A DNA stretch of 64,000 nt from Octopus vulgaris (GCA_951406725.2 OX597816.1:55676001-55740000), one strand, 5' to 3'. Shown: positions 9,604 to 53,225, counted from the stretch's first letter. Notes: generated by a model not told the origin, from the letters alone. A program made the numbers and translations.

Positions 9604-12265
9604 TTATATATAGATATATATTGTCAATAATAATAATAAGGGTAAAATTAATTAATTAGTAATTAATAATTTTACCAAGCATGTATGTAAAAAGACCATT
9701 TACGGTATATTTAAAAGTTTACTTTATATAATTAGGGTTCAGCAATTTCCTCTACTATAAGAAGTATAGTAGAGGAAATAGCTAAATGCTTTGGCTGCTA
9801 TTTCTAAAAGTTCGGTGTGTGGTAAAGTAATTTTTTTTGCTGAACCTTAATTATATATATATATATATATATATATATATATATATATATATATATATAA
9901 ATATATTAATATTTCCTTCGAATTGTTACTTTTAGAATAAGGATCAACACTTTGAACCTTTGCTCCTGCTACTGACAACAACAGGTAAAATAGTCGACTT
10001 GTATTTCTGTTAAGTGTAAATTGGCAACAGTGACGTAACTCCTGAGTTCCAGAATAGTGTACTTATGTGTATGGCAGTGGCGAGAGAAAAGCTGAAAAAA
10101 GTAGAGTTTGTGAATTTGTAAGTTAGGAAGTTCGTGAAAAGTAGTGTTATATAATTCTGGTGGAAATAATAAAGGGGATGTGTATGTGTGGCAGTGTGGG
10201 GAATAGGCATAGAGCGAGAGAGAGAGAGAGCGAGAGTGATCGAGAGAGAGAGAGAGAGAGTGAGAGAGAGTTACAAATCTCGGTATCCCAATATGTTAGA
10301 TATTGTCATGGCGTCCATGCTTTCTGAGTGAAACAGAAGAGATGGAAACCGCTAGAAAGATTGTCCTATGAATTGTGTTCGGAATTTTGAGGTCTAGCCT
10401 TATCCTCTGTATCACTGGTTCTTCACGACAATTACGTTAAAGGTGCATCCGTCAAGCCTGAACCCAACGATTCTGATGTTAAACTAATCGACTAAGCATC
10501 TGCTCGAAAATGACGGATAATCTACAATTTATGAAGAAGCTTGAAAAACATCGATAATCTACTTATAATGGTGTATTACCATTTGCCTTTTAGAATGGCG
10601 TCCAGAGACGCTTAAATATAAATAACTTTTCTGTTCCCTGTAAAATCAATGGTTAACTTAATTCATCGCCTGATTTAACAAGTTCTCTTTCGCTTGGATG
10701 AGTTTAGCAGTACCCACTCGGTTGTCAGTGTCCGTGCTAATCCTCTGATCTGTGAATAATGTCTTCCTTTCCACCCACCAGCCAGGAAAGACCTAATATC
10801 GGCCTAAGTATTGTCATTATAAGAAAAAAAATTAATAAAACAGCGTTGATTCCAAAATATATCTGATCGTGGAATGTCAAGTAATTATCTTGAAAAATGT
10901 TATATGTTGCATCGACCACTCGAGACTTGATTATTGCATTACCGCCTAAAATAGTAGCAATATGACATCTTGGTTATCAACGAATCTATCAATGACAATA
11001 TCATTCATATTTAAAATATGACTACATTTAATAACATAGTCATTAATTTATAATTCACTCAAACCCGTATGGCAAATTTACATCGAATAGAAACGAAATG
11101 AATTCCTACATATGATATTTATAAAAGAAATGCATCCAAAATTACTAAGATCATTTTTGTGAGGAATGAGTTACAAATATACTGAAAGTGTTCCATTGCA
11201 TATGACTGAAAATAGGTTTAATTTCAATCTTTGCTGTTATAAACCAACATCGACCAATCAAAAACATTCCAACCGTGACAGTCTCATCTACTTAGGAATG
11301 ATCATTCATTGGATTACAAATCTTTGCCCATGAATGCATTATTCCAGTTTTCATTTCCGCTATTCAGGATAAAGGAAGGGTTCCATGATCCTTTACCCGG
11401 CCGCCGAAAAATCCTACCCTTCTTTCATATACTTGCTAGAGACCCGACACGACTTCCATCAACGCCATCATCTGGCATCTAAGGTTGCTAGTAGAAGGAT
11501 GCTAAAGCGAAAACAGTATTAATTCATATGTTAGCATTCGATTGTAAAGACTTTTAGCTGCCTCATCATATCTCAAGAGTTATTATCCTCCTATCAAATC
11601 TAAGCAACAGCAAATCAGGTCAATATCATTCGAAAGATCACTATGGCATTCATTGTATATTTCCAGGCAGTACTTAGGTCACATCAGCAATGGTTGAATA
11701 GGTGATGTGAGCCTAAAATTGTTCCAAAGATATTCATCGCATGCTTGGTAGATCTAGGGCTAAAATATTCCATGTAACTTTCGGTTTAAGGCAGGATTTG
11801 GGAAAGATTTGTCTGCTACCTGTCGCATATGGAGCTAACCAGAAATATTATCTGTTTCAGGTTCGGTTCAGGATTCGGGTTGAAGCTTTGTTTTTGGTGA
11901 GGTTAAGAATTCCTGCCGCTGTCGCCTCTCGTTCAATCGAATAGAAGCCATTTCATTGGTTGACATTCAGCAGCTCTCTCGACGTCAAAGCAACTCATTG
12001 ATAACACATTATGGAAGCATGAAATTTAAATGCAATCAGTCGGTTTGGGTGTCCCATTCGAAATCGAATGACATTTTATATGGGCATGATGATTATTAGT
12101 ATTCACACACAGACACACACACACACATGCACCCAAGCACACACATACTCACACACATACACACAGACATATACACATATATATATATATATATATATAT
12201 ATATATATAACATACGCTCATGGAAATATCTGTATCTATATATATACATATGCTTGTGTGTGTGC

Positions 12266-12425
12266 AGGCGCGTGGCTTAGTACTTAGGATCTTGTACTCC
12301 TGATCGTAAGATTGTGGTTTAAATTCTTGGGCAAGCGATATGTTGTGTTCTTGCGCAAAACACTGCATTTCACGTTGCCCCAGTCTACTGAATTGCCAAA
12401 AATCAGTAATCGTGCGATGGAGCAC
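12266..12425 (+). mobile_element. CORE-type SINE, family D (5' part)
   Basis: GGCGCGTGGCTTAGT A-box, GGTTTAAATTC B-box, TGTGTTCTTGCGCAAAACACT..TTTCACGTTG CORE-like segment shared with 21700-21760. Confidence 0.7.
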
Positions 12426-13299
12426 TCACCTGAAGTGTTTGAAACAAACGGCATCTAAAGTTGAAATTGGAACTACCAAACATCTGAAGAGATTTAACCC
12501 AGGCATGTATCGATAGGTGTTTGTCGAGTCTGTTCGATATAAAAGCCAGAGTCTCTTTTCGAAAAATGGTTGGACTCCTTGAATGATGTCACCGTTCCAT
12601 ACGCTTGCTTGTGTACGTGTGCGTGCATGCGTTTCTCTGTGTGTGCGCGCGCGCAAGTACAAAGCCCTAGAAAAGCCACTGACAACCAAGATTATCACCC
12701 ACATACATCTGGTCTAGTTTAGCATAAGTCTCCCTTGCTGATGTCCCTCGTAACTGTTTACGACCCGTTAACAGAAAAGCAAGTATAGAAATACTTGCCT
12801 TGTATTGTACTGTGCTTCCTCTCCTGGTTTCGGTACCCAAGACACAGACACCCTTCCCACACACATATGCTTCATTTAACAGAAGAACAATATGAAAGTG
12901 CAAATTTTGCATTTGTCAAACCCGTTGATAGATGCAACGTTTATTTGCAGGTGAACATTACCTGAGTTTTTGCCATTTACAGCTTTTCGCACAACGAACA
13001 GTGATATCGGTTAGATCAATAAAGCGTGACCAATAATGCCTCTGTTAATATACAACTGCCCTTTAAACATCAAGCTAGTTTATTAACAGCTGGATTTAAG
13101 TGTTTCGTTTGGAATTAGCCGCAAACACACCCAGTCCGCGCATAAACACATACGCACAAACTCATATACATATTCGTTACGTGTGTCTCTCAAGTGCATA
13201 CATATACGAAAGTGCATATTTTCGTGTTTGTGTTTATGTATGAAGAGGTGGTTTTATCCTGGGTAGAAGAAACAAGATAGATAAAAGTTCCATACATGA

Positions 13300-13551
13300 G
13301 CGTGTGAAAGGTAGGAGAGTCCAGTTTGCTGGACATTGTTGTAGAGCTGAAAAAGAAGTAATTTCTACTCTTCTCTGGAAGCCATCTACTCGCAATACCA
13401 GAGGGCGCACACTCTCCTACCCTGATGTAATCTCCAGGGATACAGGCATTCAGCAACAGGACCTCCGTAATGCCATGATGGACCTTGAAGTCTGGCGTAG
13501 CATGGTAAATTCCATTGTGTCGACCACGGTCGAACAATGAGGATGATGATG
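13300..13551 (+). mobile_element. RTE-clade LINE 3' end fragment
   Basis: RRVQFAGHCCR...LLWKP...RGR...AMMDLEVWRSMV is the typical RTE ORF2 C-terminus, followed by a (GAT)n tail. Confidence 0.85.
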
Positions 13552-52149: not shown

Positions 52150-52750
52150 TTTTCAAAAAGCTTTTGTCGTTCTCGACACAGTCAAGGAGATCTTGTGGAA
52201 ATGAAACCCGACTGCGTTTTTGAGGGTCAGCTGCAAGCTGTTTTGGCACAAACTTGTGAGACACGCGTCTCATATTCAAATCTTCAATGATAATAGACTG
52301 AACTGAACCGTAACTAATCTGCACATCCTCTGATAACTCACGGATGGTGATTCGACGATTTACCCTCACAGCTGCACGCACATCTGTGACGTTTTCCTGA
52401 GTTCTGCTGGTTGCTGGTTTCCTAGAATATTTGTCACTATCGACATTTTCCCGCCATCTTGAAAACATCTGAACCACTCGTACACTTGTGTACGGCTCAT
52501 ACACTCCTCTGCATACACTTTCTGCAACTTTGCGTTGGCCTCTGAGCAGTTATCGCCATGAGACCCTTTCTGCGACGGTAAATGGGACAATCACATGCTA
52601 CACACGTTCCTTCCTAGCACTGCTGTAAACAGCAGAAGCGAGATAGAGCTTTAAACTCAATGCGTATACACAGCCAAACGACTTTACTCATCGTGCTTTA
52701 GCTTCGTTACTATGTCAACAGGCCATATACTTATTGATCAGAACACGTAT
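52150..52750 (-). mobile_element. Mariner fragment (5' TIR and N-terminal HTH region; irritans-like)
   Basis: MSRTQVYEWF...RRITIRELSE...RRVSHKFVPKQL; TIR-like TACGTGTTCTGATCAATAAGTAT at about 52727-52749. Confidence 0.85.
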
Positions 52751-52922
52751 GTATGTATATAATAATAATAATAATAATAATAATAGGGAGTATAACTCCA
52801 AACTTATTATTATATTATTTGTTATTTATGTATTGGTTTATGTCTATCACTGTTTGAGTTGCATAATTGTGGTTTTAACTCTAATTTATATTTCATATAT
52901 ATATATATATATATATATATAT

Positions 52923-53225
52923 ACCGGAGTAAACACATAAATGTGAAACAAGGTGGAAAAAAGAGTACTCAAATACCAGTGGTAGAGTAATATGCTTTAT
53001 TTTAAGCAGCAGAAAATTCAACAAAATCTGTTACTCTGAGTTTCTCGTTGCCGTTCATCAGACAGTTTTTGCTAGAATGGAACCGATATATCAATTAGCG
53101 TTTGTAAGAGTCTAGATTGAATTGATATATCGGTTCCATTCTAGCAAAAACTGTCTGATGAACGGCAACGAGAAACTCAGATTAACAGATTTTGTTGAAT
53201 ATCCTGCTGCTTAAAATAAAGTATA
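52923..53225. mobile_element. Short fold-back PLE/retrozyme-like insertion with two inverted hammerhead motifs
   Basis: About 105-bp near-perfect inverted arms (52991-53096 / 53120-53225); related copy at 41615-41832; flanked by (TA)n. Confidence 0.8.
53025..53068 (-). ncRNA. Minimal type I hammerhead ribozyme motif
   Basis: Minus strand AAACTGT-CTGATGA-ACG(GCAA)CGA-GAAA-CTC-A-GAG-TA-ACAG. The plus-strand twin at about 53148-53191 has GAG changed to GAT next to the site. Confidence 0.78.

Follow-up and report, generated by a model that had tools for sequence, protein, structure and literature searches.

Elements at the locus

We analysed 64,000 nucleotides of Octopus vulgaris DNA (GCA_951406725.2 OX597816.1:55676001-55740000; hereafter the window), a stretch of AT-rich animal DNA in which microsatellites are abundant throughout. 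The window holds seven elements made of inverted arms, numbered E1 to E7 by position, most of which carry parts of putative hammerhead ribozymes. The most probable explanation, to which we assign a probability of roughly 85%, is that all seven are dead, 5'-truncated Penelope-like elements (PLEs) of several families, in which the inverted arm arose from integration and the hammerhead was inherited from the end repeat. The analysis draws on the window, one mapping of public contigs, protein searches and published papers. The elements and their principal parts are as follows (ORF, open reading frame; coordinates are those of the window).

9729-9853, unstranded: E1, fold-back with its turn at 9760-9764
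15652-15761, unstranded: E2, fold-back that turns in a 10-bp hairpin just before GAAA
36477-38024, minus strand: E3, likely a 5'-truncated PLE, with (TA)n on both sides
36863-37760, minus strand: decayed end of a PLE ORF in E3, with stops and frameshifts
37924-37956, plus strand: predicted hammerhead in E3, complete minimal type I, with A3-U8 replacing C3-G8 (core 37928)
39803-40275, unstranded: E4, inverted arms of about 190 nt, left end on (TG)n
40588-41139, plus strand: retrozyme-like unit of 468 nt with a direct terminal repeat of 84-88 nt and (TA)n on both sides
41612-41832, minus strand: E5, fold-back of the E7 group with a one-sided tail at 41612-41681
41839-42850, unstranded: E6, inverted arms of about 170 nt around low-complexity DNA
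50341-50478, minus strand: solo PLE-type end with a predicted canonical-core hammerhead at 50478-50436 (core 50474-50468), about 100 nt from its (TA)n end
52924-52989, minus strand: one-sided tail of E7, 66 nt, ending on (TA)14, with a small predicted hairpin at about 52965-52989
52990-53226, unstranded: E7, young fold-back with arms 52990-53096 and 53120-53226 (103/107)
53028-53065, minus strand: predicted E7 hammerhead, complete, with canonical core 53061-53055

A preliminary description of this DNA had proposed seven inverted-arm elements, and self-BLAST of the microsatellite-masked window recovered the arms of all seven (E values from 1e-5 to 4e-82). Its coordinates for E5 and E7 (41682-41832 and 52991-53225) omit a one-sided extension of about 66-70 nt. 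E5 and E7 are alike over 137 nt, and this likeness includes the 66-70 nt that lie beyond the mirrored part on one side only (41612-41681, 52924-52989). Identical alignment columns between arms number 56/85 in E1, 56/83 in E2, 177/238 in E3, 147/200 in E4, 58/71 in E5, 131/182 in E6 and 103/107 in E7, these alignments being local and including some flank. The spread from 103/107 in E7 down to about 72-82% in E3 to E6 indicates insertions of widely different age.

The contact with (TA)n or (AC)n that had been described for most elements, and with it the proposed targeting of microsatellites, is borne out: 8 of 14 ends, belonging to six of the seven elements, have (TA)3+ or (AC)4+ no more than 6 nt away, as against 2.6% of background positions. 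Element ends were set by eye, and two of them sit on one common TA run. The only element without such contact is E2 (15652-15761), whose flanks are AT-rich. In E2 to E7, the hammerhead motif or its 3' half points outwards and is placed about 30-110 nt from the element end.

Four further inverted pairs were rejected as members of the set: those at 2723-3617 and 57631-59594 are independent copies resembling short interspersed nuclear elements (SINEs), that at 46533-46771 is purine-rich, and that at 52119-52558 falls within a mariner-like frame.

The interval 36400-43011 is a local insertion hot spot, where roughly eight ends of PLE type lie together with two SINE-like copies within 6.6 kb, several of them nested in common TA runs (E5/E6).

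Hammerhead motifs

Judged by sequence, the motifs appear to represent several families of minimal type I hammerheads of the PLE type, with cleavage predicted only. The same assignment had been made before, and the strict sites, the helix III patterns and a match to the coral PLE Hydra-2_aMil now speak for it.

A plain CUGANGA descriptor finds 2 sites in the window, compared with 0.4 +/- 0.6 in 40 shuffles (largest 2), and with one mismatch 11 sites against 8.1, which is no enrichment. A strict descriptor, admitting any Watson-Crick 3-8 pair and requiring a palindromic helix III, finds 4 sites (722 plus, 37928 plus, 50474 minus and 53061 minus) against a mean of 0.075 and a largest value of 1 in 200 shuffles; it was designed after the first hits had been seen, so that this enrichment is flattered. 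Allowing one mismatch, it finds 9 sites against 1.76 (largest 6), and with two mismatches 9 against 4.0, which is not an enrichment. The comparison with shuffled sequence that had been suggested for the motif thus favours the strict form within the window, and the relaxed descriptors are not enriched. For the hammerhead 3' half taken by itself, the count is 13 against 4.7, a figure matched by 1 of 300 shuffles, and 7 of these 13 occurrences fall in the present elements or in similar ends. Two helix III patterns, picked after seeing the data, give 5 matches against 0.62 (the E2/E5/E7 type) and 4 against 0.17. A motif at 63085, which has neither core nor helix I, was rejected.

The earlier statement that most elements carry hammerhead parts holds with qualifications. 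The complete motif is retained in only 2 of 14 arms (37924-37956 and 53028-53065). When both arms are read jointly, a test that took in E2 to E7, E3, E6 and E7 pass (shuffle P of 0.012, 0.013 and 0.0005), while E2, E4 and E5, which have partial motifs, fail, as do three control pairs; in the same both-arms test, none of these controls (two SINE pairs and one other) contained a hammerhead motif (0/3). Three near-canonical cores had also been named, and two of them, at 50436 and 53025 (both minus), are complete, whereas in that at 40863 the first pair of helix I is broken.

Arm mismatches reach core positions too, at 2 of 12 in E3 and 3 of 12 in E6, and there is no sign that the ribozyme cores were kept up between the arms of these two elements. 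Monomer folds of the motifs were no better than those of shuffles (9/9), and predicted co-folds gave a clean dimer topology in 3 of 8 cases, in part owing to how the motifs were picked. None of the 98 matches that an Rfam scan gave at E up to 5 was to a hammerhead family, a result that is uninformative for minimal motifs.

An endonuclease remnant in E3

E3 carries the remains of a PLE gene. Its layout comprises a 3' end repeat (36477-36688), a 3' untranslated region, the end of a decayed ORF and an inverted copy of the end repeat (37820-38024). In the ORF remnant, a CX4CxxC linker at 37279-37250 is followed by a GIY-YIG domain at 37210-37109; the ORF strand reads towards the (TA)n end, and the domain ends about 170 nt before the end repeat. 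An HMMER search with a 39-residue piece of this ORF returned 15 relatives at E up to 0.001, one of them named from mussel, and the Pfam GIY-YIG domain was present in 7 of the 13 relatives scanned. A profile built from these relatives (E 4e-41) and a tblastn search match the window at 36863-37632 only. A word-based protein search with the decayed endonuclease found nothing, unlike the HMMER search. In the CCHH region, the copy has one changed cysteine and a frameshift, and relatives keep the CxxC; the reverse transcriptase (RT) core was lost by truncation. The GIY-YIG domain occurs in 1 of the 7 elements, the other six having no match to Neptune-type endonuclease queries.

On these features E3 is likely a truncated PLE of Neptune/Nematis type. 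Neptune and Nematis PLEs share with E3 a CX2-5CxxC linker before a C-terminal endonuclease and the association with (TA)n, and the layout of E3 is that of the Neptune endonuclease rows compared with it; E3 differs in being decayed, in having lost its RT core and in its A3-U8 ribozyme core. The earlier proposal that a PLE protein with RT and GIY-YIG domains is the likely mobiliser of the elements is supported.

In the mirror arm of E3 (36556-36588, minus), A3 and U8 are kept and U16.1 is lost. Since both arms have A3 and U8, the template carried the A3-U8 pair. This core, seen in a single insertion, was not reported in the literature searched, although Lunse et al. (2017) or the supplements of the papers may contain it.

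E7 and its family

E7 is the youngest-looking fold-back by arm identity, and its mirror motif (53151-53188) carries G16.2U. We mapped public contigs from four runs (X1, X5, X2 and X10, with three organism labels; X10 is only guessed to be RNA) to the stretch 52916-53236 at 82% likeness. The family was found in all four runs, with 7105, 5752, 1917 and, in X10, 76 contigs. It is hugely abundant, and these contig numbers are not a copy number; nor is summed depth. Perfect hairpins collapse in contigs. The listing behind what follows comprises 32 of the 14,987 pieces, 24 of the 482 loose-end rows and 15 of the 49 joints; cover is missing at 53202-53236 as a result of skipped repeats, not absence, and the right end has no depth.

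The E7 family has two alternative 3' ends, 66 nt apart, one at 52990 without the tail and one at 52924 with it, both on (TA)n. Among the rows listed, loose ends at 52990 coincide with (TA)n in 30, 40, 13 and 1 contigs; records crossing the ends of the mapped stretch number 409, 566, 208 and 13. Many subfamilies have the tail in common and then diverge upstream of about 53000 (loose ends 52998-53002). From helix I towards the 5' side, X1 depth, taken as left bin plus mirror, runs 2.1M, 1.75M, 0.96M, 0.44M, 0.46M, 0.47M and 0.34M, having peaked at about 2.3M; in X5 and X2 depth also drops in this direction, more evenly than in X1. Upstream of 53096, 11, 4 and 1 contigs (16 in three runs) extend in sequence that is not the mirror. 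Because of this continuation, the spacer 53097-53119 is parent sequence that goes with the right arm, and the turn of E7 is likely its own.

Other copies of the family turn elsewhere. The 15 listed joints have left sides at 52935-53075 and right sides at 53137-53148 or the mirror of this zone, around a 4-nt palindrome, which places the right-side zone 7-18 nt upstream of C3. Nearly all are represented by one contig in one run, the joint from 53041 to 53139 reaches a depth of 1967, and the turn of E7 itself is not among the 15. In another copy (joint 53015-53141), an internal piece has seemingly been lost between short repeated words, as in E1.

The 11 variant rows listed affect N7, U4 and helix II, together with sites that flank helix II or lie outside the motif; positions 3, 5, 6, 8, 9, 12-14, 15.1, 16.1 and 17 are free of them. 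U4C at 53060 (mirror 53156) accounts for 62, 40, 39 and 39% of family depth in the four runs, and its presence in DNA runs too shows that it is not editing. In the predicted E7 transcript, the arms pair over 107 bp and bury the ribozyme, so E7-type copies are unlikely to cleave.

A 2,993-base contig (X10, record 12) ends in a sense E7-type tail that matches 52928-52999; this may be a relative in its full length, or else a host transcript with a repeat of this kind at its end. Searches for the tail patterns in metagenome and viral contigs gave 0 and 0 matches.

E2, E5 and E7 appear Hydra-like, a membership suggested by ribozyme likeness. Hydra-2_aMil has the same helix I, odd-length palindromic helix III and cleavage base as E7 and, by eye, shares the small tail hairpin at its 3' end; its helix II differs, and no ORF is seen in E2, E5 or E7 or for the E7 family. 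Of the 26 Hydra rows in the tabulated part of PMC8557442 that we used, 5 have a helix III of the E7 type, and the target given there for most Hydra families is (TA)n. The Hydra clade is marked by RWK and DKT motifs, a CxCX5C linker and the lack of CCHH. An Octopus bimaculoides PLE hammerhead, Hydra-1_oBim, is tabulated in the PMC8557442 supplement, and its motif has 0 matches in the window.

The remaining elements and solo ends

E5 has its motif at 41731-41765: the left arm reaches C3 of a core with U4C (41764) and A9U, outside the aligned part, and the right arm begins at GAAA. The U3-A8 hammerhead of E6 is complete only across both arms (41892-41928 minus, 42762-42799 plus). E2 has a hammerhead 3' half with helix III of the E5/E7 type and no 5' core box. 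In E4, at 40234-40249, helix III is palindromic and comes with GUA and a helix I of 4 bp; a recognisable 5' core box is present in neither arm. Both E4 arms (39829-39864 and 40215-40249) retain the strong helix III and helix I beside an 8-nt 5' box unlike any core, which could be a decayed variant with an A6a insertion, of the kind described in part of PMC3088659, or a half core as in some Naiads.

E1 is the least certain member and may be either a PLE end or a miniature inverted-repeat transposable element (MITE). It has GAAA and a 6-nt palindrome after the turn, but lacks the invariant U16.1, and its ends are symmetric over 17 bp and placed between TA. By eye, its left arm (9729-9759) resembles the right arm minus an internal piece lost between short repeated words. 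The turning points of E1, E2 and E5 all lie within 12 nt of GAAA.

The solo end at 50341-50478 has no inverted partner in a self-BLAST of the window. Three more PLE-type ends, absent from the preliminary description, have a U3-A8 core with 0-1 further changes and occur at 38981-39101 (minus), 42928-43011 (minus) and 717-847 (plus), each with a (TA)n run 45-95 nt downstream. At 38847-38969 (plus), a decayed hammerhead-like end, recognised by eye, stands tail to tail with the 38981 element across a short (TA)n.

Comparison with known systems

The inserts exemplify, at high density, a pattern that has already been described; they do not amount to a new system. In the sections of Craig et al. (2021; PMC8557442) and Frangieh et al. 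(2024; PMC11167929) used here, endonuclease-bearing (EN+) PLE insertions combine 5' truncation, an inverted, 5'-truncated copy at the 5' side, a one-sided tail, a bias for (TA)n and an end-repeat ribozyme, all of which recur in the window. Frangieh et al. trace a two-end signature to two start sites of reverse transcription, and the entry for Penelope-13_HM in the PMC8557442 supplement gives it an inverted copy as well as a ribozyme on each of the two strands. Several copies in the window differ in consisting of almost nothing but two end repeats. Published PLE ribozyme activity is low or protein-assisted, and the ribozyme is dispensable for insertion in vitro, according to the portions of PMC4209133 and PMC11167929 considered here.

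Many minimal-hammerhead families per genome, as single motifs or as opposite-strand pairs 100-700 bp apart, are reported by Cervera and De la Pena (2014; PMC4209133), who read such pairs as truncated PLEs. In the passages of that paper used here, the metazoan motifs have the short helix I, the palindromic helix III and the bulge before helix II that we find, and include a U3-A8 variant. The same passages contain no A3-U8 core such as that of E3; frequent U4C is a feature of the E7 family here, and a part of PMC3088659 notes U4C for a viroid.

The preliminary description had left it to a database check whether the elements are undescribed for this species; in kind they are not, being in print (PMC4209133 and PMC8557442, in the parts cited above). 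An annotation of O. vulgaris assigns 6.83% of the genome to PLEs, in 190 families, and its main text uses the word ribozyme 0 times (PMC13282606); PLEs are also a repeat class common to coleoids, as stated in the part of PMC8967140 used. The eight main elements together occupy 4,351 of 64,000 bases (6.8%), which is of the same order as this share and illustrates how densely PLE ends can pepper such a genome. What the window adds is a number of unnamed families of a known class, which may already sit in Dfam, Repbase, the O. vulgaris library or the supplements of the papers, and some small extras: the A3-U8 core, hairpins whose turn falls within or close to helix II, and a single direct repeat that resembles a retrozyme (40588-41139). 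For annotation, it is useful to know that such hairpins can pass for MITEs or microRNA precursors.

Proposed origin and alternatives

Under the truncated-PLE account, PLE RNA would be bound by its RT/GIY-YIG protein, which would nick (TA)n or (AC)n, as the relevant parts of PMC11167929 and PMC8557442 suggest. Reverse transcription would have two possible start sites, lying 30-110 nt downstream of where the ribozyme cuts, and the choice between them could give rise to the tailed and tail-less ends observed for E7. An early stop would be usual and leave most copies with little beyond the end repeat, in keeping with the observed thinning towards the 5' side. The inverted tail-less copy seen at the 5' side would have been joined there, probably by snap-back or second priming, and the arms would decay after insertion. 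The ribozyme would be present in each arm only because it lies within the first hundred bases copied, and is predicted to work as a dimer in a tandem source RNA, not in the hairpin copies.

Several observations weigh against this account. A full motif is lacking in E1, E2 and E4. An ORF remnant was found in one of seven elements with protein queries of the Neptune-type endonuclease, so that E4, E6 and the parent of E7 may be non-coding; the internal frame of E4 gave nothing usable in a protein atlas (best 0.83). In E3, a piece at 37754-37549 was picked out by eye as resembling an RT thumb, by its motif; a Pfam scan of this piece was blank, and the tblastn match there is weak and reaches 37632. 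The drop in E7-family depth fits truncation as well as subfamilies that diverge below 82% likeness, and given the partial listing, the collapse of hairpins in contigs and the joint of depth 1967, an amplified E7 hairpin subfamily may exist. Finally, the E7 tail measures 66 nt, and published tails 30-40 nt (PMC8557442 and PMC11167929, parts cited).

Of the alternatives, the one that survives best, as a possible though doubtful addition, is that some families are non-autonomous, non-coding PLE derivatives of retrozyme type that use the PLE protein, their hairpins still being by-products of integration. The best candidate is the unit at 40588-41139, and the parent of E5 and E7 could be another. 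The former combines a direct repeat with one ribozyme in a unit within the size range of animal retrozymes, many subfamilies with the E7 tail diverge just upstream of it (52998-53002), and the published origin of animal retrozymes lies in PLE end repeats. Non-long-terminal-repeat retrozymes, as described in the parts of PMC7229834 and of Li et al. (2026; bioRxiv 10.64898/2026.07.22.740005) used here, form direct tandems with at least two working ribozymes and give rise to circular RNAs; the 40588 unit resembles them in its type I ribozyme, PLE link and unit size. By contrast, E1 to E7 are inverted and mostly decayed, and one of them is coding. No direct tandem array with two complete ribozymes occurs in the window; the 40588 unit amounts to about 1.2 units with a single decayed hammerhead (40863-40917, core 40868-40874), whose first helix I pair is an A.C mismatch and whose core fails in the proper register. 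No ORF was seen in this unit, which is either retrozyme-like or a truncated partial tandem. The motifs are moreover of the minimal PLE type, not the canonical type of expressed retrozymes, and only about 30 nt upstream of E7 are seen. In the window, only this unit resembles the retrozymes that the preliminary description had invoked.

We regard as speculative, and on balance unlikely, an extension of the truncated-PLE account in which the ribozyme region itself sets the fold-back: truncated cDNA would snap back on helix II or the upstream palindrome and prime the inverted arm, the near-perfect double-stranded RNA that has been reported for octopus would come in large part from the hairpins, and A3-U8 would belong to an active Neptune-type family. 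This reading is suggested by the turns of E1, E2 and E5 close to GAAA, by the 15 listed E7-family joints with one side 7-18 nt upstream of C3 at a palindrome, and, for its A3-U8 part, by the A3 and U8 common to both arms of E3. Against it, E7 turns about 35-58 nt upstream, depth in X5 and X2 falls gradually, and library chimeras could mimic the joints. A tie between turning points and ribozyme structure would make the elements matter more, as the origin of PLE inverted copies is an open question in the part of PMC8557442 used; snap-back, if true, would explain these long-unexplained copies. The elements would also matter more if the hairpins feed the high A-to-I editing reported for octopus (PMC5625713, in part).

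It is improbable that the hairpin unit is itself mobile, that is, that mini-elements formed by a palindrome with a ribozyme pass as such through transcription and re-insertion, which is close to the short non-coding families proposed in the preliminary description. All 15 listed joints have their right side at 53137-53148 or its mirror, one with a depth of 1967, and in three short elements the turn is no more than 12 nt away from GAAA; yet the left sides of the joints vary from 52935 to 53075, nearly all are single-contig with a summed depth below 1% of the family peak, fold-back chimeras in the libraries could produce them, the turn of E7 is not among them, and the ribozyme is buried in a predicted duplex. 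E3, moreover, holds the remains of a PLE gene, and the E7 family resembles in its behaviour a longer element cut down to its 3' end, with its ribozyme locked in the predicted 107-bp duplex.

Least likely of all, and largely refuted except for E1, is that the set consists of MITEs or of other DNA transposons with terminal inverted repeats, lodged in TA sites, or else of chance opposite neighbours, with an accidental ribozyme likeness: the 17-bp symmetric ends of E1 between TA, the two inverted pairs that are independent SINE-like copies, the relaxed descriptors without enrichment and the Rfam scan without a hammerhead would suit it, but E3 contains GIY-YIG and no transposase, E5 and E7 have a one-sided tail and the E7 family variable turning points instead of symmetric fixed termini, strict motifs (4 against 0.075) and helix III patterns (5 against 0.62, 4 against 0.17; post hoc) exceed shuffles, and helices I and III match a published PLE ribozyme exactly.

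Minor features of the window

Other features of the window are of familiar kinds. Decayed mariner-like transposons lie at 17403-18444 and 60180-61249 (a pair 83% alike) and at 52100-52549 (SETMAR/Mos1 matches); of 11 named matches to a mariner frame, 4 are from Octopus and the others from mite, bee and nematode. Decayed frames of long interspersed nuclear elements are found at 43015-45009 and 13244-13540, with RVT_1 at 44091-44447 (E 5.5e-9). An open frame of 145 residues and ordinary composition at 22561-22998 is perhaps a host exon, and a search with 22561-22950 found no longer relative. Self-BLAST also brought up very short perfect or near-perfect hairpins at 16227-16268, 17215-17251 and 40575-40606, the last of which marks the left edge of the 40588 unit and is perhaps a fold-back in miniature.

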